From Lentimicrobiaceae bacterium (lineage in GTDB: Bacteria > Bacteroidota > Bacteroidia > Bacteroidales > UBA4417), in NCBI GenBank assembly GCA_031550085.1, contig JAVBOY010000004.1, positions 306 through 64,305 on the forward strand: a stretch of DNA of 64,000 bases, written 5' to 3'. Positions 4-40,221 of the stretch are shown here, piece by piece. The notes under the pieces were generated by a model. It was not told the DNA's origin. It saw only the letters and a list, made by a program, of their open reading frames with translations, and did not search any database. The stretch's first letter is position 1. Each line of letters starts with the position of its first letter. The position numbers were made by a program, and so were the translations under genes.

Positions 4-231
4 TCAAGCATCTTTCGGCAGCTTCCTTTTCTTTTTTTTGCCCAGGTATATCAACAAAAGGAAAAACAGGCCGAAGGCAAGCATGCCCAAGCCGGCCCAC
101 AAATTGACATTGATGCCCAAAGAGGCTTTGTAAAGCTCTGCATTCTGCAGGGTGGCCAATCCATAAATACTGATAATAATTCCCAAAAGGGTAAACATCA
201 AGCCGATCGGAAGTTTTATATCGAGTCCCAT
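4..231 (-). CDS. Small two-TM membrane protein, probable accessory of the upstream sodium:solute symporter
   Basis: 75 aa, two hydrophobic stretches and a Lys-rich tail; co-oriented downstream of the SSS gene. Confidence 0.7.
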   Translation of the reverse strand: MGLDIKLPIGLMFTLLGIIISIYGLATLQNAELYKASLGINVNLWAGLGMLAFGLFFLLLIYLGKKKKRKLPKDA

Positions 232-489
232 AATGTGTTTATTTGTTGAATTGTTGAATTGTTGAATCGTTTATTGGTGAAATAGGGAAAAATGGGGAAG
301 CCGGAGAAATAATGGGTACTTGTTTTTCTGTTACGATAATTTAATCTACTATTATTTCTATTCTAATCGCATAATGTGAAATGTGAAGCGTGAAGGGTGA
401 GTTGTTTGTTGAGTTGTTTTTTGTTGTTCGTTTACTCGTTACCCGTTGCTCATCATCAAACCCATTTTAATTCTTCATTTTCAACGGTT
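232..489. repeat. Intergenic micro-repeat mosaic, locus A
   Basis: TTGTTGAA octamers 244-270, G-rich GGGAAA units, 39-bp AT-rich box 335-373, GTGAAGCGTGAAGGGTGA 383-400 and CCCATTTT..TTTTCAA near 460-485; the same modules occur at 5947-7233 and 36672-37369. Confidence 0.85.
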
Positions 490-2190
490 CTACCAAAAAA
501 TAACGCTTAAAGCCAAAGCAATGACTCCGGCAATAACAGCCAATACTTGCGGGCGGTGGTACCAGTGCTTGGAATCATCCACGGCTTTGGGCGTGAGCGA
601 ATACACCAATCCTTTAAGCTCTTCATCGGTCTTGGTGCGTTTGGTCACTTTCGAAATCACCCAGGTAAGCACCAAACAAACGCCGAAGGCCCAAATGGCC
701 GTATAAAAGTTTTGCGCCATCTCGCTGGGATAGGTAACCAATACCTCCCCCAACCATCCGCCTTTGATCAACGAAGTGGCGCCCAGGGGTTGCGACAAAC
801 CATGATGTACGGCTGCCGCCAAAATTCCGGAAAGCAATCCCCAAAAGGCACCGTGCGCCGTGGTACGTTTCCAGAACATCCCCAGCAAAAAGGTGGCAAA
901 CAGGGGCGCATTGACAAAAGCGAAAATCAGCTGCAGGAAATCCATCACATTGTTGAATAAAGCTGCTACATAGGCCGCGCCAATGCTGACAATAATCCCG
1001 ACGACGGTAGTCAGCCTGCCAACCCTCAAATAGTGCTTGTCGCTTTGGCCGGGTTTTAAATAGCTCTGGTAAATATCGTAGGTAAATACCGTATTGAAGG
1101 CCGATACATTGCCGGCCATGCCGCTCATAAAGGAAGCCATCAAAGCCGTCAGGCCCAGCCCCAATACGCCGTTGGGCAGGTAATGGTTCAGCAGGGCGGG
1201 GATTACCTTGTCGTAATCGCGGACGCCCGAAGTACCCTCTTTAAAAGGAATGAATTCGGGATGTTGCGTGACCAAAGCAGCAGCAATCAATCCGGGCAAA
1301 ATCACCAGAAAGGGAATAAACATTTTGGGAATGGCGCCGATCAGCGGTGTACGGCGCGCGGCCGACATGCTGCCCGCTGCCATGGCGCGTTGTACCACCA
1401 GGAAATTAGTGCACCAATAGCCGAACGACAGCACAAAGCCCAATCCCATCAAAATACCCATCCACTCCACGCCCATCGGGTTTTGAGAAGCCGAAGCGCT
1501 GTATTTCCAGGTATGGATCATATCCGGGTTAGAGGCAAAAGCGGTTTGAAGACCTTCCCAGCCGCCGATGTTTATCAGGCCCAGGACGGCCAAAGGTAAA
1601 AAACCGGCGACAATTAAAAAGAACTGCAGCACTTCGTTGTAAATAGCAGACGTCAATCCGCCCAGATAAGTATAAACCAGCACAATCAGGGCCGAAACAA
1701 TCAAGCTCATGTTAAAATTCCATCCCAACAGAGTTTCCATCAACAACGCCAGCGCATACATGGAAATTCCGGAAGCAAACACCGTCATTACGGCAAAGGA
1801 AACGGCATTAAGCGCCCTCGTTTTCTCGTCGAAGCGCATTTTTAAGTATTCCGGCACCGACCGGGCTTTGGATCCGTAGTAAAACGGCATCATAAACAAA
1901 GCCAGGAAAATCATGGCCGGAATGGCGCCGATCCAATAAAAATGCACGGTCATCAATCCGTATTTGGCGCCCGAAGCCGCCATTCCGATCACTTCCAAAG
2001 CGCCCAGGTTTGCCGAAATAAACGCCAATCCCGTCACCCATGCCGGCAGGGAGCGCCCGGCTTCGAGGAAGGCGGAGGAGTTCTTCATGTATTTTTTCAG
2101 CGCCCAGCCGATTCCAAGTACAAATACAAAGTAAATCAGCATGATGGCGTAATCGACAAAATGAAGGTCAAATTTCAATTCCATATCCAT
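490..2190 (-). CDS. Sodium:solute symporter (SSS/SLC5 family), probable sugar transporter
   Basis: 566 aa with about 13 TM segments; SSS motifs FLEAGRSLP, GLAFISANLGALE, YLKMRFD, LVVQRAMAA, GLTALMASFMS. Confidence 0.92.
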   Translation of the reverse strand: MDMELKFDLHFVDYAIMLIYFVFVLGIGWALKKYMKNSSAFLEAGRSLPAWVTGLAFISANLGALEVIGMAASGAKYGLMTVHFYWIGAIPAMIFLALFMMPFYYGSKARSVPEYLKMRFDEKTRALNAVSFAVMTVFASGISMYALALLMETLLGWNFNMSLIVSALIVLVYTYLGGLTSAIYNEVLQFFLIVAGFLPLAVLGLINIGGWEGLQTAFASNPDMIHTWKYSASASQNPMGVEWMGILMGLGFVLSFGYWCTNFLVVQRAMAAGSMSAARRTPLIGAIPKMFIPFLVILPGLIAAALVTQHPEFIPFKEGTSGVRDYDKVIPALLNHYLPNGVLGLGLTALMASFMSGMAGNVSAFNTVFTYDIYQSYLKPGQSDKHYLRVGRLTTVVGIIVSIGAAYVAALFNNVMDFLQLIFAFVNAPLFATFLLGMFWKRTTAHGAFWGLLSGILAAAVHHGLSQPLGATSLIKGGWLGEVLVTYPSEMAQNFYTAIWAFGVCLVLTWVISKVTKRTKTDEELKGLVYSLTPKAVDDSKHWYHRPQVLAVIAGVIALALSVIFW

Positions 2191-4257: not shown

Positions 4258-4264
4258 TTGTGCA

Positions 4265-4480
4265 ATTACGAATCAATTGAAAATTGAACTTAGCGAAGCG
4301 ATCTCATGAGGCGAAGCCGAGTAAAGTGGAGAATTGAAAATGATTTGTCGGTTTACCTTGCACCGTTTATCCATTATTACCAATTCAACACTTCAACAAC
4401 TCAACACTTCAACAACTCAACACTTCAACAACTCAACACTTCAACAACTCAACAATCCAACAATTCAACACCTCAACAAA
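4265..4480 (+). repeat. Micro-repeat mosaic, locus D, ending in 12 tandem TCAACA(A/C)N octamers
   Basis: AATTGAAAATTGAA heptamers 4275-4288 and 4325-4341 flank a 36-bp GCGAAG-containing insert; octamer array 4385-4480, first 8 units alternate TCAACACT/TCAACAAC perfectly. Confidence 0.9.
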
Positions 4481-5190: not shown

Positions 5191-5946
5191 ATGAAAATAC
5201 GGCTACTTGTTTGGATTCCGGTCCTCCTTGGTTTTCCGGCTGCGGCACAAGCCCAGCAGCAGGATAAACCCGACACACTCTGGAGGCGCAATGTATTGAA
5301 GTTGAATCCCACGCAAATGCTGGCCTACAACAAGCGGAACGTGGTCATTGCCTGGGAACATGCCGTCAAAGCCCACCAGACCTTCGAAGCCAAAGTCGGC
5401 TTTTTCGGCTTGCCGCGCATTACCGGCGACACCATTTTGAACCTGGCTGCCATTACCAGCCGGCAATCGGCCGGTTTCCAGGTGGGCGGCTCGTACCGTT
5501 TTTACCTGAAGAACCGGAACGTCCATTATGCTCCCGAAGGGGTTTACCTGGGAGCTTTTGCCTGTTATTACTACAATCAGTTTCAGAACACCCTCAACCT
5601 CTACCATTCCACCAAAACCTATAGCGGCGTGGTGCTCAACAGCCAAACCAGCATTTTATCCGTCGGGTTCGAGTTGGGCTATCATTTTGTATTTAAAAAC
5701 CACCTGACGATCGATATGGTCCTGGCCGGTCCCGACATCACCTACCTGGCGGCTTCCCTAAAATTGCGCGGGAACTGGGACAACCAGTACAACGAAGAGT
5801 TTATGGGCGGCCTGTATTCACAATTGGTCGAACGCTATCCGCCTTTGGGACAAGTGATCCATCGGGGAGAATTTAAAACGTCCGGTATTGTCGACCATTG
5901 GCTGCCTTTTTACAAATACATCATCCAGATCGGCTGGAATTTTTGA
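5191..5946 (+). CDS. Outer-membrane beta-barrel protein (DUF3575-like)
   Basis: Signal peptide, NVLKLNP motif, YRFYLK, ELGYHFVF, terminal IQIGWNF (C-terminal Phe). Confidence 0.65.
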   Translation: MKIRLLVWIPVLLGFPAAAQAQQQDKPDTLWRRNVLKLNPTQMLAYNKRNVVIAWEHAVKAHQTFEAKVGFFGLPRITGDTILNLAAITSRQSAGFQVGGSYRFYLKNRNVHYAPEGVYLGAFACYYYNQFQNTLNLYHSTKTYSGVVLNSQTSILSVGFELGYHFVFKNHLTIDMVLAGPDITYLAASLKLRGNWDNQYNEEFMGGLYSQLVERYPPLGQVIHRGEFKTSGIVDHWLPFYKYIIQIGWNF

Positions 5947-7233
5947 GGATACACAAAAGAAGGGGAAAGGGGTTTATCGTGAACAGTGAAGGGAGAGTTG
6001 TTTGTTGAACTGTTGAATCGTTGAATCGTTGAATTGTTGAATTGTTTATTGTGAAGCGTGAACGGGTTCAAGGTAAAGGTTTAAACTGGGGAAATCGGGG
6101 AAGCAGGGGAAATAGGGAGGTGTTGCTCTTGATTTTAATCCACCATGATAATTAAATCTAATAATGTGATATTTTAATCGCATATCGTGAAGCGTGAACA
6201 GTGACGGATGAGTAGTTTGTTGAGTTGTTGAACTGTTGAATTGTTTATTTGTATCAAAAGCCTTTCTGCCTGCTTCTATTAGACCTTGTCTACTTGTACC
6301 TCGTCACCCGTTACCCGTCAACCGTTATTCGTCACCAATACGGTAATAGAGTTCATACGTCTTGAGAGTTTAGTGATTCCGATGAGAGCTATTAGCTTGC
6401 CGGAAAGCATACGGTAAACAATACCTTTCATTATACTACTAATAAGTCCTACATCTCACTCAAATAAACCCTACGACTTAAATAAGCAAGATGTAGGTCT
6501 TAAAAAAATGAGATGTAGGACACAGGATTAATCACTCCAATGGGAATATTTAAACTCTCAGGGGGAAAACTATTAATCTTCCTTGATGGCAGGCTTAAGA
6601 AGTAGAAAGGGTTCTAGCTTCGCAATGAAATGTGAAGCGTGAAATACCTGTTGAATTGTTGAATTGTTGAATTGTTTATTTAGTGAAGCGTGAACGGTAC
6701 AGGGTAAAACGGGGAAATGGGGGAAGGGATTTCTCCCTTTCATTTCCTTCCGTCGAAATGACTTGAGATTCATCTTTGAAAACCCATTTTCAACTTTCAA
6801 TTCTCAATTTTCAATTGAAAAGCCTTCTGCTTTTACCTTTCTGCACTAAAATGTGAAGCGTGAACAGTGAAGGGTGAGTTGTTTGTTGAACTGTTGAATT
6901 GCTGAGTTGTTTATTTAGTGAAGCGTGAAGGGTAAAATGGTGCAAGGTACCCCGTTAACTAAAAAATTCATTCGTAATTCGTAAATTTTAATTCGTAATT
7001 AATTTACTACTTGTATCTCGTCACCCGTTACTCGTCACTAAATCCCATTTTCAACTTTCAATTCTCAATTTTCAATTGAAAAGCCTCTGCTTTTTCCTTT
7101 CTACCCCAAATTAGTTACACGGAGAGCCACTGAGATTTCACAGAGTTACACAGAGATTCTTGTTTACCCGCAAACTCGTGGCTCACAAACTAACAAACCA
7201 CTTTCAATTCTCAATTTTCAATTTTCCACTGAA
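5947..7233. repeat. 1.3-kb non-coding micro-repeat mosaic, locus B
   Basis: Four octamer arrays (about 6003, 6220, 6650, 6885), AT-rich box 6147-6184, GATTTCTCC..GTCGAAATGAC arm 6726-6762, TTTTCAA..GCC(T)TCTGCTTTT twice, TTCGTAA and GTCACCC heptamers, CACAGAG module 7113-7159. Confidence 0.9.
6440..6527. repeat. Four-unit 22-bp-period array, two forward and two inverted units (core CCTACATCT)
   Basis: GTCCTACATCTCA 6446-6458 is a perfect inverted repeat of TGAGATGTAGGAC 6509-6521; degenerate copies start at 6468 and 6487. Confidence 0.8.
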
Positions 7234-7980
7234 TTACGTATTCATGCCACCGCAGACATTGATGACTTGTCCGGTAACATAATCCGATAAATCGCTGGCC
7301 AGATAGGCACAGGTTTTCGCCACGTCTTCGGGCGTGCCGCCACGGCGCAACGGAATTTTCTCGGCCCAGCCTTTGCGGATTTCTTCGGACAATGCATGGG
7401 TCATTTCGGTTTCGATAAATCCGGGGGCAATGGCGTTGCAACGGATGTTGCGCGAACCCAGCTCTTGTGCGATGGATTTGGTAAATCCGATCATCCCGGC
7501 TTTGGAGGCCGAATAATTGGATTGGCCGGCATTGCCGCTAACTCCCACCACCGAACTCATGTTGATGATGGATCCGCTGCGTTGTTTGAGCATATATTTT
7601 TGAACGGCTTTGGTCAGGTTAAAAACGCTTTTGAGGTTTACCTTTATAACCAGATCCCAATCGGTTTCGGGCATCCGCATCAGCAAATTATCGCGGGTAA
7701 TTCCGGCATTGTTTACCAATACGTCGATCCGGCCGAATTCTTTTGCAATTTCATCCACCACGCGTTCGCTGTCTTCGAACGAGCTGGCATCGGAAGCATA
7801 TCCAAGGGCTTTCACACCGAAAGCCGCCAGGTCTTTCTCGGTGTTTTCCATGGTTTCGTCACGGCGCATATCGGTAAACGCGATGTTGGCGCCCTGTTGA
7901 GCAAAAAATACGGCAATGGCTTTTCCGATTCCGCGCGAAGCGCCGGTAATTAAAGCATTTTTTCCTTCTAATAATTTCAT
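7234..7980 (-). CDS. fabG: 3-oxoacyl-[ACP] reductase
   Basis: SDR motifs TGASRGIG, NNAG, SSVVG..GNAGQSNYSASK, NAIAPGFI. Confidence 0.95.
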   Translation of the reverse strand: MKLLEGKNALITGASRGIGKAIAVFFAQQGANIAFTDMRRDETMENTEKDLAAFGVKALGYASDASSFEDSERVVDEIAKEFGRIDVLVNNAGITRDNLLMRMPETDWDLVIKVNLKSVFNLTKAVQKYMLKQRSGSIINMSSVVGVSGNAGQSNYSASKAGMIGFTKSIAQELGSRNIRCNAIAPGFIETEMTHALSEEIRKGWAEKIPLRRGGTPEDVAKTCAYLASDLSDYVTGQVINVCGGMNT

Positions 7981-35266: not shown

Positions 35267-35557
35267 CTACAACAGCACCATTTCCTTTACGACCTCCTTC
35301 CCTACTGCTTTATTTAACTTGCGGATCAGGTCGGTTTTGTGGTAGGAAAGTTCGTGTTTCAGGGCGGCATTGTCGGCTTTTACATAAAGGGCCTGATCTT
35401 TGACATAGATTTTTTCGGTATGGCGGGCGATCAGTTTTCCGGCTACCTGCGTCCAGGCCGAAACCACGCGGGCCTCATCGACCTTGCGGCTGATGCGGTA
35501 GTCGCTGAACATTTGCTCCAACGCTTCTTTGATTGTGATTTCGGAGGAGTTACGCAT
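35267..35557 (-). CDS. DUF721 / DciA-like protein
   Basis: 96 aa; VVSAW..VAG..IA..T....VKD..LYV....AALKHEL; overlaps the recF stop. Confidence 0.85.
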   Translation of the reverse strand: MRNSSEITIKEALEQMFSDYRISRKVDEARVVSAWTQVAGKLIARHTEKIYVKDQALYVKADNAALKHELSYHKTDLIRKLNKAVGKEVVKEMVLL

Positions 35558-36671
35558 GGGTAGTAGGGGATTCGGTTACGGTTCCCGAAACGGTTTTAAA
35601 TATACGGTACTGTAGATTCAGGGACTCGAAAATTGTGGAAATGCGTTGCAAATGGGTATCGGTGATAAAAACCTGGCCGAATTGCTCACTGCTTACCAAC
35701 GCAAGCAGTTGTCCGATCCGTTGTTCGTCCAGCTTGTCAAAAATATCATCCAGCAGCAAAATGGGACAAAATCCCACCCGCAACTTGGTAAATTCGTACT
35801 GCGCCAGCTTTAACGCGACCACAAAGGATTTTTGCTGTCCTTGCGAGCCGTATTTTTTGATGGGGAATCCGCCGATTTCAAAAAGCAGGTCGTCTTTGTG
35901 GATTCCTTTGCCCGTGTAACGTTGCAGTAAATCTTTTTCGAACGATTCTTTCATCAGTTCCAAAAAGGAATTTTGATACAAATGGGATTCGTACCGGATA
36001 TCGGGAATTTCATTTCGCGAACTGATGGACTGGTAAAAGCGGGTAAAAATGGGTAAAAAATCATTTATAAATTGTTGCCGCTTTCCTGAGATAATTGTGG
36101 CCAGAGGCTGCATTTGTTCGTCCAACAACGAAAACATATCCGTCAACGAGCCGCTCACAGTGGCCGCCTGCTTGAGCAGGGCATTGCGTTGTTCGAGCAG
36201 GTGGTTGTAGCGGATGAGTTGTTCCAAATACGTTTTATCGAACTGCGATACCACCGAATCCAGGAATTTCCGCCGGAAATCGCTTCCTTCGTTAATCAAA
36301 TCACGGTCGTAAGGGGAAATCATCACACAAGGAAACTGCCCGATGTGGTCGGACAGGCGGTCGTATTCCTTTTGGTTGATTTTAAATTGTTTCTTATGCC
36401 CCAGCTTTTGGATACAACTTACAGGATCTATTGCTCCACCGGGCTGTGAATAGAATCCGTGGATGGCAAAAAAATCGGCTCCGTGACGGATGTTTTGGGC
36501 ATCGATGTTGTTGAAATAGCTTTTGGTAAACGAAAGGTAATAAATGGCGTCGAGCAGGTTGGTTTTCCCAGCACCATTATTGCCTACAAAGCAATTGATA
36601 TTGGAATCGAACTCCAGCTCGGCTTCCGCGTAGTTTTTAAAATGGATAATATGGATTTTGGATAGGAACAA
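35550..36671 (-). CDS. recF: DNA replication and repair protein RecF
   Basis: FKNY, GNNGAGKTNLLDAIY, RRKFLD, GSQGQQKS, LLLDDIFDKLD; TTG start. Confidence 0.95.
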   Translation of the reverse strand: MFLSKIHIIHFKNYAEAELEFDSNINCFVGNNGAGKTNLLDAIYYLSFTKSYFNNIDAQNIRHGADFFAIHGFYSQPGGAIDPVSCIQKLGHKKQFKINQKEYDRLSDHIGQFPCVMISPYDRDLINEGSDFRRKFLDSVVSQFDKTYLEQLIRYNHLLEQRNALLKQAATVSGSLTDMFSLLDEQMQPLATIISGKRQQFINDFLPIFTRFYQSISSRNEIPDIRYESHLYQNSFLELMKESFEKDLLQRYTGKGIHKDDLLFEIGGFPIKKYGSQGQQKSFVVALKLAQYEFTKLRVGFCPILLLDDIFDKLDEQRIGQLLALVSSEQFGQVFITDTHLQRISTIFESLNLQYRIFKTVSGTVTESPTTHA

Positions 36672-37369
36672 GGGGGTATAAGTGAAGTGTGAAACGTGAA
36701 GGGTGAAAGGTGAAAGGTTTTTTGTTGAGTTGTTGAATCGTTGAATTGTTTATTTTTAAAAGGTGAAATAGGGGAAACTGGGGAAATGGTTGTTGTGTTA
36801 GTTTGAACTGAATAGGATAATTTAATCTAATAGTATTCTATTTTAATTGCACAATGTATTTAAGTGAGATGTGAAGCGTGAAGGGTGGAATGCTTGTTTG
36901 TTGAACTGTTGAATCGTTGAGTTGTTTATTGATGAAATTCAATTTTTCACTTTTAATTCTTAATTTAGAGGGGAAAGGGATTTCTCCATTTCGCTTCGCT
37001 CCAGTCGAAATGACTCGGAATTCATCATTAAAACATTCACTTTCCATTTTCAATTCTCCATTTTCAATTGAAATGCCTTCTGCTTTTTCCTTTCTGCTAT
37101 CATAAGGTTACACAGAGTATCGCAGAGAATTCACAGAGTCACACAGAGATTCGTTGTAAACTCGTTAACTAAAAGCTTATTCGTAATTTTCCACTTTCCA
37201 TTTTCAATTCTCCATTTTCAATTGAAATGCCTTCTGATTTTTTCTTTATGCTAAAAAGAGTTACACAGAGATCACTGAGAATTCACAGAGTCTCACAGAG
37301 ATTCGTTGTAAACTCGTTAACTAAAAGCTTATTCGTAATTTTCAACTTTCCACTTTCAATTTTCAATTA
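36672..37369. repeat. Micro-repeat mosaic, locus C, including a tandem duplication of about 153 bp
   Basis: GTGAA heptamers, TGTTGAA octamers, AT-rich box 36816-36853, GATTTCTCC..GTCGAAATGAC 36977-37014, duplicated units starting at 37041 and 37195. Confidence 0.9.
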
Positions 37370-40183
37370 TTAGTGCGCTTCCAGCCAGTTGCTTCCGGTA
37401 TTTACATCTACTTCTACGGGTACTTGCAGCGGCAAAGCATTCATCATCCTGTTTTTTACCAAAGTTTTTACCGTTTCCAATTCGGGTTTGTAAACGTCAA
37501 ATACCAATTCGTCGTGCACCTGCAAAATCATGCGGCTTTTCAGGTTTTTGTCCAAAATATCGTTGTGAATGTCGATCATGGCCAGCTTGATCATATCGGC
37601 AGCCGATCCCTGAATGGGTGCATTGATGGCGTTGCGTTCTGCAAAGCCGCGTACCATCGAGTTGGCGGAATTGATGTCGTTAATGTAACGGCGGCGTCCT
37701 TTAATAGTTTCCACATAGCCTTTTTGGCGTGCCGAGGCAATGGTGGTTTCCATGTATTGCTTGATTTTAGGAAACTTCAAAAAATACTGATCGATCATTT
37801 CCTGGGCTTCCTTGCGGGCAATGCCGAGCTGTTCACCCAACCCGAATGCTGAAATTCCGTAGATAATGCCGAAATTCACGCTTTTGGCATGGCGGCGCTG
37901 GTCTTTGGTGACTTCTTCAGGTGCAATGCCGAAAATATTGGCTGCCGTAGCCGTATGAATATCCATACCCGACGTAAAAGCATTCATCATCCCCTCATCG
38001 CCGCTTACCGAAGCAATAATGCGTAATTCGATCTGCGAATAATCGGCGGCCAGAAGCGTAAATTCTTCGCTGCGGGGAACAAAAGCCTTGCGTATTTCGC
38101 GCCCTTTTTCGGTACGGATGGGAATATTCTGCAAATTGGGGTTGTTGGAACTCAAACGTCCGGTTGCAGCCACCGCCTGGTTGTACGAAGTATGGACGTG
38201 CCCGGTTTGCTTGTTGACCAAAGCCGGCAAAGCATCCACATACGTGGATTTCAGTTTCACCAGCGAGCGGTAATCCAGAATAAGCTGTACAATGGGGTGT
38301 TTGTGCGCCAGCTTGGTCAACACATCTTCAGCCGTGGAATATTGCTTGGTTGCTGTTTTTTTCGCGGTATCGCTGATTTTCAAATGTTCGAACAAAATCT
38401 TGCCCAATTGCTGGGGGGAATTGATGTTGAAATGCGTTCCGGCCTGTTCCCAGATTTGATCCTGAATTTGAATGATTTCTTTCCCCAATCCGTCCGAAAA
38501 ATCGGCCAGCGCTTGGGTATCAAGGCGGATTCCTTCGTTTTCCATACCTGCTAACACGGGAACCAAAGGCATTTCGATGGTTTCGAAAACGGGTCTGGCG
38601 CCCATCTCTACCAGTTTAGGGGCAAAGGTTTGTTGCAATTGCAACGTGATGTCGGCATCTTCCGCTGCATATTCCGCTACCAGCTCCACGGGAACGTTGC
38701 GGATGGGCAGTTGTTGCTTGCCTTTTTTGCCCACCAGTTCGTCGTACGAAATGGGACGGTACCCCAAATAGCTTTCCGACAGCAAATCCATGTTGTGGCG
38801 CATATCCGGTTGCAGCAGGTAATGTGCGAGCATGGTATCGAAGGTTTTGCCTTTTACTTCGATGCCGTATTTTTTCAAAATCGCCAGATCGTATTTCAGG
38901 TTTTGGGCTACTTTTTCGCTCTTTTCATTTTCAAATACCTCACGGAAGCGGGAAAGCAGTTGCTGTGCTTCGGCCTGATTTTCGGAAACGGGAATGTAAT
39001 AGGCTTCGTGCGGTTTGACGGCAAACGAAAAGCCCACAATTTCGGCATTCAGCACATCCAGGTCGGTGGTTTCGGTATCGAAACAAAACAACGGCGCTTT
39101 TGCCAATACTTGGAGCAAGCCGGTTAGTTTTTCTTCGGTATCCACCAAAATATACTGATGTTCCGTGTTTTTAACGGTTCTCAGGTTTTCGGAAAAATCA
39201 AAACCCGGCGCTGCGTTTTCCTGAACCTGGGAAAATAAATCTACCTGCGTGTTGTTGCTTTGCGATTTCGAAGTTTCGGCTTTTTGCGGAAGCTCGCCTG
39301 CTTTCAGGCTCAGATCGGTAAACACCCGTTTGGCGAACGTCCGGAATTCCAATTCATCGAGCAATTCCTTGAGTTCGTCTTTTTTGGGTTCGCCCAAATG
39401 CAGGTTTTCTTCATGAAATTCAATGGGAACATCCAAAATGATGGTTGCCAGCATTTTAGATTGAATGGCCGATTCCCGCCCCTGCTCCACTTTTTCGCGA
39501 AGTTTTTCGTTTTTGATCTCCAAAGTGTTTTTTAAAACATTGTCAAGGGTTCCGAATTGACGGAGCAAATCGCGGGCGCCTTTTGGGCCCACTCCTTTGA
39601 TGCCGGGGAAATTGTCGGCCGAATCTCCGCAAATGGCCAATACGTCAATCACCTGGATCGGATTGTCGATGCCGAATTTTTCGCATACTTCGGCAACGCC
39701 CAGAATCTCGGCTTTCTCGCCGTTCTTTGCGGGTTTATAAATGCGGATGTTTTCCGAAACCAACTGCCCGAAATCTTTATCCGGCGTCACCATATAAACC
39801 TGATAGCCGCTTTCTTCGGCTTCTTTTGCCAGCGTGCCGATCACATCGTCGGCTTCGTATCCGTCGACTTCCAGAATAGGAATGTCAAACGCCCGGATCA
39901 GCCGCTTGATATAAGGAATGGATGCCGAAAGGTCTTCGGGCATTTTTTCACGGTTGGCTTTGTATTCGGAAAATTCTTCGTGCCGCGCCGTGGGGGCATG
40001 CGTATCAAAAGCCACGCCCAAGTGGGTGGGATTTTCGTTTTTGATTAAATCGTACAACGTATTGGCAAAGCCTAAAATAGCCGAAGTATTCAGGCCTTTT
40101 GAGGTGAAACGCGGATTGCGCTGCATGGCGAAAAAGGCACGGTACACCAGCGCCATTCCATCGAGTAGAAAGAGTTTCTTCAC
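37370..40183 (-). CDS. polA: DNA polymerase I
   Basis: 5'-3' exonuclease (LLDGMAL, YKANR, EADD), 3'-5' exonuclease (FDTETT), polymerase motifs DYSQIELR, KSVNFGIIYG, QVHDEL; GTG 40183 preferred as start. Confidence 0.97.
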   Translation of the reverse strand: MKKLFLLDGMALVYRAFFAMQRNPRFTSKGLNTSAILGFANTLYDLIKNENPTHLGVAFDTHAPTARHEEFSEYKANREKMPEDLSASIPYIKRLIRAFDIPILEVDGYEADDVIGTLAKEAEESGYQVYMVTPDKDFGQLVSENIRIYKPAKNGEKAEILGVAEVCEKFGIDNPIQVIDVLAICGDSADNFPGIKGVGPKGARDLLRQFGTLDNVLKNTLEIKNEKLREKVEQGRESAIQSKMLATIILDVPIEFHEENLHLGEPKKDELKELLDELEFRTFAKRVFTDLSLKAGELPQKAETSKSQSNNTQVDLFSQVQENAAPGFDFSENLRTVKNTEHQYILVDTEEKLTGLLQVLAKAPLFCFDTETTDLDVLNAEIVGFSFAVKPHEAYYIPVSENQAEAQQLLSRFREVFENEKSEKVAQNLKYDLAILKKYGIEVKGKTFDTMLAHYLLQPDMRHNMDLLSESYLGYRPISYDELVGKKGKQQLPIRNVPVELVAEYAAEDADITLQLQQTFAPKLVEMGARPVFETIEMPLVPVLAGMENEGIRLDTQALADFSDGLGKEIIQIQDQIWEQAGTHFNINSPQQLGKILFEHLKISDTAKKTATKQYSTAEDVLTKLAHKHPIVQLILDYRSLVKLKSTYVDALPALVNKQTGHVHTSYNQAVAATGRLSSNNPNLQNIPIRTEKGREIRKAFVPRSEEFTLLAADYSQIELRIIASVSGDEGMMNAFTSGMDIHTATAANIFGIAPEEVTKDQRRHAKSVNFGIIYGISAFGLGEQLGIARKEAQEMIDQYFLKFPKIKQYMETTIASARQKGYVETIKGRRRYINDINSANSMVRGFAERNAINAPIQGSAADMIKLAMIDIHNDILDKNLKSRMILQVHDELVFDVYKPELETVKTLVKNRMMNALPLQVPVEVDVNTGSNWLEAH

Positions 40184-40213
40184 GGTATGTTGTATTTTTT
40201 GAAAATCGGGCTC

Positions 40214-40221
40214 CAAAGGTA
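40214..40221 (-). promoter_or_regulatory. -7 promoter box TACCTTTG for polA
   Basis: Perfect TAnnTTTG; it overlaps the ORF-track TTG start, which supports the downstream GTG. Confidence 0.6.

Follow-up and report, generated by a model that had tools for sequence, protein, structure and literature searches.

Gap B, at positions 5947-7233 of a 64-kb stretch of Lentimicrobiaceae DNA (contig C37 of a 3.19-Mb genome in 60 contigs; the whole stretch is hereafter called the window), is a non-coding, unstructured stack of three mosaic spacers, each assembled in a set order from short tandem arrays and a few other modules. Their array units belong to families resident in the genome, which small-gene cassettes located elsewhere in it share, and in our favoured reading the mosaics owe their polarity with transcription to the transcript they are part of. 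We hold this reading with middling confidence; the mosaics are probably not the debris of such cassettes.

The gap is bounded by two stop codons, that of a plus-strand gene at 5191-5946, which matched no Pfam family, and that of a minus-strand gene at 7234-7980 encoding a short-chain dehydrogenase of the FabG type. Its longest open reading frame (ORF) has 75 aa, its ORFs are translated repeats, and the five of them compared with Pfam gave no match; with no credible ORF, a hidden gene was rejected. A known RNA family was likewise rejected, as Rfam 15 gave no gathering-level match in the whole window and, at a permissive threshold, chance-level matches only between 5900 and 7300 (E of at least 0.14).

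To describe the mosaics across the genome, gene positions were taken from a crude in-house ORF and hexamer caller (2435 genes, 86% coding), and a mosaic was defined as an intergenic region of at least 120 bp carrying at least three of eleven modules. The modules are lettered a (ATTGAAA), t (TTACGAA), v (GTAACGG), k (AAAGCAG), x (CTCTGTG), S and h (the GTCATTTCGAC hairpin), which form the left class, and c (TTCAACAA), g (CCTTCAC), p (ATTTCCCC) and b (a box, hereafter box b), which form the right class. By this definition 141 intergenic regions are mosaics. Tandem Repeats Finder reported 983 non-overlapping arrays of period 7 or 8, with 186 inside called genes and about 800 outside; the array classes include AAAATTG (139 arrays) and AACAATTC (117 arrays). 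In all, 14-mers with at least six copies cover 15% of intergenic bases. The genome's largest repeat region is a 2.9-kb gene-free block of a different repeat family (G000:C13:1684-4585), with 1847 bases in high-copy 14-mers.

The order of the modules is close to fixed. In 1718 of 1819 pairs of a left-class and a right-class module, the left-class one comes first; mosaics begin with module a in 62 cases and end with c in 78 and with g in 42. The left half is rich in purines, and the right half, with or without the 55-nt box b, is poor in G. Between co-directional genes, 86 mosaics lie in the sense and 17 in the antisense orientation. The same bias is seen family by family, with sense to antisense counts of 113:23 for ATTGAAA, 157:30 for TTCAACAA and 21:1 for AAAGCAG, while GTGAAGG, at 17:47, shows that CCTTCAC is the sense form. 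A rule that puts a 5′ type first and a 3′ type last is trivially symmetric under reverse complementation; as specific families in co-directional gene pairs were counted instead, this concern is removed. Nearly half of the sense ATTGAAA arrays (46%) begin within 25 nt of the upstream stop, and right-class arrays lie toward the next start, 22% of sense TTCAACAA arrays ending within 25 nt of it.

Replication strand as the cause of the polarity was not supported. The bias is kept for genes on the G-rich strand (25:4) and on the C-rich strand (20:8), and in convergent and divergent gaps mosaic orientation bears no relation to GC skew. Mosaic polarity tracks transcription, not GC skew. The first-pass annotation, made from the letters of the window, had proposed an ordered, co-oriented grammar of repeat modules at four loci; this grammar proves to be a genome-wide, transcription-polar system, and random orientation was not what we saw.

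Different loci have blocks of up to 266 nt in common, with copies 74-86% identical, and no near-identical copies of mosaic blocks were found in the genome comparison; the mosaics are old copies. The modules have conserved cores of 5-6 nt at fixed spacing with variable filler (TCAAC+3, TTCAC+2, TTCCCC+2-3), and the mosaics carry a fixed junction, ..TTCAC-AAATAAACA-ATTCAACA... Module content and copy number vary freely between loci, and the genes at mosaics have no common theme (a symporter, polA-recF, fabG and an envelope operon are among them). The left and right cores are roughly complementary in mirrored order, ATTGAAA (TTGAA) facing TTCAACAA (TTCAA) and GTGACGG/GTAACGG facing CCTTCAC/GTTCAC. 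The periods are 7 against 8, or there is one mismatch per unit, so no stable stem forms; the complementarity could be a coincidence or a degenerate, disarmed hairpin.

On the transcript strand, sense mosaics run from 23% to 8% G and from 10% to 28% C, reaching 28.5% C and 7.8% G in the final 120 nt before the next start. In those 120 nt ATG, GTG and TTG together occur 9.8 times per kb, compared to 41.4 in other gaps and 117.9 on the mosaic antisense strand. Mosaic gaps have few copies of TAnnTTTG, the -7 promoter motif of Bacteroidota (0.55/kb vs 2.05/kb), which fits a place inside transcription units. Box b, of which nhmmer found 115 copies (66 sense, 16 antisense), lies a median of 149 nt upstream of the next start (interquartile range, 109-225 nt). 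Its consensus contains neither TAnnTTTG nor TTTG on either strand, and, mosaic gaps being poor in TAnnTTTG, we rejected it as a canonical Bacteroidota promoter.

Conserved RNA structure was rejected wherever we looked for it, namely in locus C of the window on both strands, in box b and in pairs of mosaic ends. The locus C RNA folds no better than its shuffles (z of +0.76 and +0.83 for the two strands), and box b has no consensus RNA structure. When the first and last 120 nt of each mosaic were paired as an end-to-end duplex, pairing did not exceed that of shuffled ends (median z 0.03 for 81 mosaics; the shuffles keep mononucleotide composition only).

Gap B itself consists of tandem arrays of short period, with a few non-repeated pieces among them, and on the minus strand, the sense strand of fabG, these read as three successive mosaic copies. 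Copy 1 (7229 to 6853) runs through ATTGAAA, CTCTGTG, an AAAGCAG/TTTTCAATTGAAAA/ATTGAAA block, GTAACGG, TTACGAA and CCTTCAC-TTCAACAA-CCTTCAC. Copy 2 (6850 to 6632) has an AAAGCAG/ATTGAAA block, the GTCATTTCGAC hairpin, a ATTTCCCC array and CCTTCAC-TTCAACAA-CCTTCAC arrays. After a mostly unique stretch (6625 to 6335), copy 3 (6334 to 5975) carries GTAACGG, TTCAACAA and CCTTCAC, the 55-nt box b, ATTTCCCC and again CCTTCAC-TTCAACAA-CCTTCAC. The features, in fabG sense order, are as follows.

7202-7229, minus strand: module a, an ATTGAAA-type heptamer array that opens copy 1 after the fabG stop (7234)
7113-7160, minus strand: module x, a CTCTGTG array (CACAGAG on the plus strand), whose unit also forms the inverted arms of a GxxExxY gene (G000:C16:24531-24902)
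7047-7110, minus strand: modules k and a, with AAAAGCAGAGGC.. ahead of TTTTCAATTGAAAA and an array of ATTGAAA units; this is the second copy of repeat family D2/D6
6962-7040, minus strand: modules v and t, a GTAACGGGTGACG array (7010-7040) and a TTACGAA array (6962-7000)
6853-6945, minus strand: right half of copy 1, a TTCAACAA octamer array flanked on both sides by CCTTCAC/TTCACGCTTCAC arrays and joined to them via AAATAAACA (repeat family D1)
6786-6850, minus strand: left half of copy 2, modules k and a (repeat families D2 and D6)
6719-6762, minus strand: module h, the short hairpin GTCATTTCGAC..GGAGAAATCCC, common to locus C (36977-37014)
6632-6726, minus strand: right half of copy 2, a ATTTCCCC array (6707-6726), then CCTTCAC, TTCAACAA and CCTTCAC
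6363-6560, unstranded: a 198-bp segment with inverted-repeat bounds between copies 2 and 3 (I1, I2, I4)
6297-6334, minus strand: module v, a GTAACGGGTGACG array that is the left half of copy 3 (repeat family D3)
6187-6250, minus strand: a TTCAACAA octamer array and a CCGTCACTGTTCACGCTTCAC array, in the right half of copy 3
6128-6186, minus strand: box b, a conserved AT-rich core with no tandem repetition of its own (sense TATGCGATTAAAATATCACATTATTAGATTTAATTATC..)
5975-6120, minus strand: end of copy 3, ATTTCCCC (6088-6120), CCTTCAC, TTCAACAA (6002-6049) and CCTTCAC, about 30 nt from the stop of the gene at 5191-5946

Inverted pairs inside gap B are weak (71-76% complementary). The module h sequence GTCGAAATGAC has 34 copies in the genome and scores as terminator-like on the plus strand. 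The 198-bp segment has inverted-repeat ends (TGAGAGTTTA../..TAAACTCTCA) and internal GTCCTACATCTCA-type repeats, and bears no relation to the arrays. A single further copy occurs elsewhere in the genome (window 6339-6536 against C8:123293-123492, 76% identity), and the segment looks like a small separate insertion.

Three other loci of the window carry the same modules, and the genes that flank the four encode a sodium:solute symporter, a DUF6515 protein, FabG, PolA and RecF.

243-489, minus strand: locus A, a single mosaic that separates the symporter gene (490-2190, minus strand) from a small ORF (4-231, minus strand)
4258-4479, plus strand: locus D, ATTGAAA units 18 nt past the 4257 stop, and after them 12 octamers of the TTCAACAA type up to the ATG at 4480
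36672-37369, minus strand: locus C, a mosaic between polA (37370-40216, minus strand) and recF (35550-36671, minus strand)

In sense order, locus A reads a-like, v, CCTTCAC, box b, ATTTCCCC and TTCAACAA, then the start codon, and locus C reads a x k a x k a h c g b p c g. The sequence GTGAAGCGTGAA, with up to one mismatch, occurs 11 times in the window, always at loci A, B and C (0.33 expected), and the double octamer TTGTTGAANTGTTGAA occurs 18 times, always at loci A-D (0.02 expected). In loci B and C, 6719-6844 of B and 36970-37097 of C, comprising the hairpin and the following ATTGAAA block, are 84% identical over 129 nt, and the two loci have in common GGGATTTCTCC..GTCGAAATGAC, TTTCAAT/GCCTTCTGCTTTT and the CACAGAG arrays. 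The first-pass annotation is therefore borne out in its placing of the modules, in the lack of a credible ORF in B and in the arm, TTTTCAA stretch and CACAGAG modules that it gave to both B and C. It had also put heptamers at each of the four loci no more than about 20 nt from the upstream stop, and on the sense strand ATTGAAA-type heptamers do start 0-18 nt past it in 4/4. The TCAACAA octamers lie at the far end of the loci. The further statement that they end just before the next start in A, C and D holds for A (11 nt) and D (0 nt) but is only approximate for C, where a CCTTCAC array intervenes, so that either TTCAACAA or CCTTCAC arrays end 0-11 nt ahead of the start in these three loci.

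The mosaic family is carried by one genome only. Arrays of TTCAACAA gave 357 hits in this genome and 0-16 in each of 18 genomes of the same genus, and among 201 genomes of the order full-length box b was found in this genome only; as far as sampled, the bipartite mosaic is specific to this species. Three relatives within the order (G025, G026 and G013) have their own abundant octamer arrays, ATCAACAA, TTTAACAA and TTCGACAA, each one base off TTCAACAA and many of them at contig ends, which suggests parallel, lineage-specific array families.

The nearest genomes share 50-78% protein identity, and their gaps are not alignable with the mosaic gaps. At the junction downstream of polA, 18 relatives showed neither synteny nor modules. 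A search for closer strains returned no match to fabG in an exact-protein look-up, neither a fabG 28-mer nor a box b pattern was found in metagenome contigs, and plasmids gave no match. In three same-genus genomes (locus L007, G003:C24, 298-1837; G008:C190; G016:C517) a second copy of the final 30-59 polA codons lies about 1.4 kb downstream of the gene. In L007 an AAA_14 + DUF4143 ATPase gene on the opposite strand fills the gap, which in G008:C190 and G016:C517 has ORFs of comparable length (413 and 382 aa), and the arrangement looks like an insertion into the polA 3′ end that brought its own replacement gene end.

The array units of the mosaics recur around small genes. By family search the genome has six TIGR02436 four-helix-bundle genes and two TIGR04256 GxxExxY genes, none in gap B, and all eight are intact: no stop-containing matches were returned, and no dedicated low-stringency search for remnants in the mosaics was made. 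Inverted arrays of a single unit family bracket 6/6 of the four-helix-bundle genes and 1/2 of the GxxExxY genes. The arm pairs are TTGTTGAA/TTCAACAA, GTGAAGG/CCTTCAC, ATTGAAA/TTTCAAT, GGGGAAAT/ATTTCCCC, AGTAAACTAG/CTAGTTTACT, GATGAAC/GTTCATC and CTCTGTG/CACAGAG, and the arms of the seven cassettes belong to unit families a, c, g, p, x, S and GATGAAC. Five of the array-flanked genes are in the top 1% of 2402 for flank complementarity, and in 7/7 cassettes the end-to-end duplex scores a z of -2.6 to -6.6. In each of the six informative cassettes the arm that has the orientation usual for orphan arrays is also on their usual side, a, x and S by the stop and c, g and p by the start (p of about 0.016 by chance).

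The first-pass annotation had stated that such repeats flank genes of four families. This was right for TIGR02436 and for one of the two TIGR04256 genes; array flanks of this kind are missing from the GIY-YIG and DUF559 genes in this genome, and we rejected a link to them. The second GxxExxY gene (G000:C31:47125-47790) is without heptamer arrays and is accompanied by a unit of about 100 nt with CCTGTC..GACAGGATTACAAGATTTTCAGGAT, present in one copy upstream and three to four tandem copies downstream.

The cassettes occupy the whole stop-to-start gap inside operons, including serC-serA, nuoH-nuoI and an efflux adaptor-pump pair. In relatives, the serC-serA spacer (11 genomes, 7-130 nt) and the nuoH-nuoI spacer (8 genomes, 4-151 nt) hold no gene and no arrays, and from these short spacers it follows that the two cassettes are insertions. 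They are lineage-specific, about 0.5 kb long and absent in 19/19 relatives in which the junction was recovered; the contrast is one of filled and naive sites for cassettes, not for mosaics. Pairwise identity among the six four-helix-bundle proteins is only 18-52%, and they are as close to foreign homologues (53-58%) as to one another. A search for loci across phyla, made with an alignment of four of the six proteins (all six being too diverse), gave inverted flanks scoring at least 30 in 37/71 four-helix-bundle loci compared to 2/71 in a reversed control. The arms there consist of tandem heptamers, each locus having a unit of its own, and in Pseudoalteromonas the arm unit CCTAGAA of one cassette is an array family present at many loci in four genomes. 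The cassettes resemble the intervening sequences (IVS) of 23S rRNA.

In the reading that we favour, individual arrays would grow and shrink by replication slippage, and whole blocks would be copied between gaps by a route that we do not assign. Polarity would be maintained by selection on the transcript, the mosaic being transcribed with its neighbours: the sense orientation alone would give the next gene a leader rich in A and C, with almost no G and almost no start codons. Such a leader should matter in Bacteroidota, a phylum largely without Shine-Dalgarno-guided initiation. Cassettes would borrow resident arrays or become homogenised to them.

Several points weigh against this account. Left-half modules such as AAAGCAG (21:1) are equally polar, and leader selection does not explain them. 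Mosaics in convergent and divergent gaps show no clear anchoring to the expected gene end. An untranslated stretch that is rich in C and poor in G resembles a Rho loading site, and a view in which the sense orientation is the harmless one predicts counter-selection against it. The account gives no mechanism for the spread to 141 sites, and no enzyme, terminal repeat or target duplication was found. Both co-transcription and leader selection are inferred, the gene calls are crude and a single genome has the family. The favoured reading and three of its rivals are also not fully exclusive.

One such rival gives the mosaics a function as cis-elements of operon RNA, multi-site platforms for a single-strand RNA-binding protein or Rho, with box b as a protein site, that would together set the expression ratio of neighbouring cistrons or decouple them. 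The strong polarity with transcription is what this would predict, as are the unstructured, C-rich and G-poor last 120 nt, cores of 5-6 nt conserved at fixed spacing amid variable filler, and a conserved box b at a characteristic distance ahead of the next start; a like role has been proposed for TAACTGA repeats forward of start codons (PMC4679880). We nonetheless consider it unlikely. The proposal is drawn from sequence, any function would have to be very recent given that no sampled relative has the family, loci vary freely in copy number and in the modules they contain, and the genes served lack a common theme.

The first-pass annotation had read gap B as a possible empty cassette site, conjecturing mobility by way of an RNA or single-stranded-DNA intermediate, and the corresponding rival takes the modules to be solo arms of single-gene cassettes (four-helix-bundle, GxxExxY) that inserted after stops in a fixed orientation and were later lost, leaving B as stacked borders. 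The resemblance is real: the genes of the seven cassettes are bracketed by the unit families of the mosaics, inverted flanks recur across phyla, two cassettes (serC-serA and nuoH-nuoI) are insertions that 19 relatives lack, and cassettes, like mosaics, fill a gap exactly from stop to next start. Gap B has the tandem 7-8-nt units, of the same families as the cassette arms, but it has no ORF between arms and no complementary inverted arms or long stem. No filled or empty state was found at mosaic loci, and nothing shows that B ever held a cassette gene.

A gene lost from between inverted arms should leave the arms paired. Among about 980 arrays there are only 10 inverted pairs by a strict unit-match criterion, four of them empty, so we rejected the idea of many hidden pairs; their rarity, together with the unpaired mosaic ends, leans against empty sites. 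Arrays also outnumber cassettes by about 100:1 (about 800 intergenic arrays and seven array-armed cassettes), the family search gave eight intact genes and no stop-containing matches, box b (115 copies) and the TTCAC-AAATAAACA-ATTCAACA junction occur in no cassette, and the strict left/right order would need a rule on which arm survives. Finally, old, unrelated genes within young, species-specific arms suggest that the arms were taken from resident arrays or homogenised to them, and descent more likely ran from array to cassette arm than the reverse. We therefore regard the empty-site reading as doubtful.

In a further account the arrays are primary and the small genes are guests docking on them, which would make mosaics like B the landing pads, and perhaps the substrates, of the encoded proteins rather than their scars. 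Transcription-polar arrays would colonise gene junctions, a four-helix-bundle or GxxExxY gene would settle beside a resident array, and its second arm would arise on the spot by inverted copying of that array or be homogenised to it. If true, this would explain why arms differ within one genome, why they match orphan arrays and why there is no conserved transposon end. We think it quite improbable as stated.

It is very unlikely that the mosaic is a non-autonomous composite element resembling a miniature inverted-repeat transposable element (MITE), moved in trans, for instance by enzymes like those of IS200 or the RAYT family (transposases associated with repetitive extragenic palindromic, or REP, elements), with polarity arising from a single-stranded DNA mechanism: blocks of up to 266 nt are common to loci, internal order is fixed and the genome has two IS200/RAYT-like genes, but copies are 74-86% identical with none near-identical, there are no terminal inverted repeats, the ends being of different unit classes and unpaired, the RAYT-like genes are flanked by different, GC-rich REP hairpins, and mosaic polarity follows transcription, whereas that of IS200/IS605-type elements follows replication. 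Single-strand transposons such as IS608 and REP elements do insert with strand polarity. The mosaics also lack the imperfect palindromic unit of REP elements, consisting of direct tandem repeats with module h as the sole short hairpin, and no cognate RAYT gene carries the same repeats. The two IS200/RAYT-like genes (C41:54660-55106 and C60:21747-22208, assigned to the family from sequence motifs only) each have their own GC-rich REP-type hairpins, and ahead of the second a 50-nt unit that contains the hairpin GCCACGTAGTGGC is present in at least five tandem copies. These REP repeat systems are separate from the heptamer mosaics, and a REP/RAYT link was rejected because the RAYT-like genes carry other repeats.

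Dispersed heptamer arrays have, to our knowledge, been known since about 1990 without an assigned function; the STRR (short tandemly repeated repetitive) sequences of heterocystous cyanobacteria are of this kind. TAACTGA repeats are found in marine Beggiatoaceae, cyanobacteria and Bacteroidetes, mostly as 'forward' sets just upstream of start codons (PMC4679880), and Geobacter metallireducens has heptanucleotide elements of four or five units (PMC2700814). The arrays described here are like them in having a tandem unit within the 5-11-nt range of the class, in lying mainly between genes at many loci and in having a lineage-specific unit, and the TTCAACAA arrays also point forward toward a nearby start (157:30). 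Several heptamers are likewise mixed in one gap in Gramella, Aequorivita and Elizabethkingia. Unlike these systems, the mosaics combine at least ten unit families with a non-repeat box and a hairpin in one fixed order, show a G-to-C gradient along the transcript and whole-mosaic polarity (86:17), place some families at stops rather than starts, and are tied to four-helix-bundle and GxxExxY cassettes.

The enterobacterial BIMEs (bacterial interspersed mosaic elements) are extragenic, transcribed mosaics of REP units and accessory motifs in regular order, some with an AT-rich protein-binding motif; their palindromic REP units alternate in orientation and are linked to RAYT. The mosaics resemble BIMEs in having several short motif types in regular order, and the AT-rich motif is a possible analogue of box b. 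They differ in that their units are direct tandem repeats without palindromes, and in that the RAYT-like genes of this genome carry other repeats.

REP/RAYT and Ssn/NTS are systems in which small nucleases are framed by repeats on which they act (PMC11893778). The GxxExxY gene, of PD-(D/E)XK type, likewise lies between copies of a repeat that is also scattered without a gene in hundreds of copies. Here, unlike in those systems, the scattered copies are ordered polar mosaics rather than single hairpins, the GxxExxY protein is known from sequence and the GIY-YIG gene is not flanked by repeats.

We did not find in print a fixed multi-family grammar, a genome-wide polarity combined with a composition gradient, or evidence of cassette arms drawn from the array families of the host. 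The genome is an extreme and clean case, with about 800 intergenic arrays in 3.2 Mb, strict order and orientation, a G-to-C gradient and few start codons ahead of the next gene; such features suggest leader quality, Rho loading or protein binding as hypotheses.

The "IVS protein" family of four-helix bundles is large and uncharacterised. In the 23S rRNA of Coxiella burnetii and Leptospira, IVS elements carry an S23p/four-helix-bundle ORF, and the Coxiella IVS has tandem GACAGAT heptamers, variable in number between strains, at the RNase III cut site (PMC4990558). The cassettes described here are similar in holding a four-helix-bundle ORF in the loop of a stem formed by terminal inverted repeats; they differ in lying between protein genes rather than in rRNA, and gap B has neither ORF nor stem. 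That cassette arms belong to the species-specific array families of the host, and follow the same placement rule, suggests how IVS-like arms may arise, and the shared arms argue against reading every gene-less array as the scar of a cassette.

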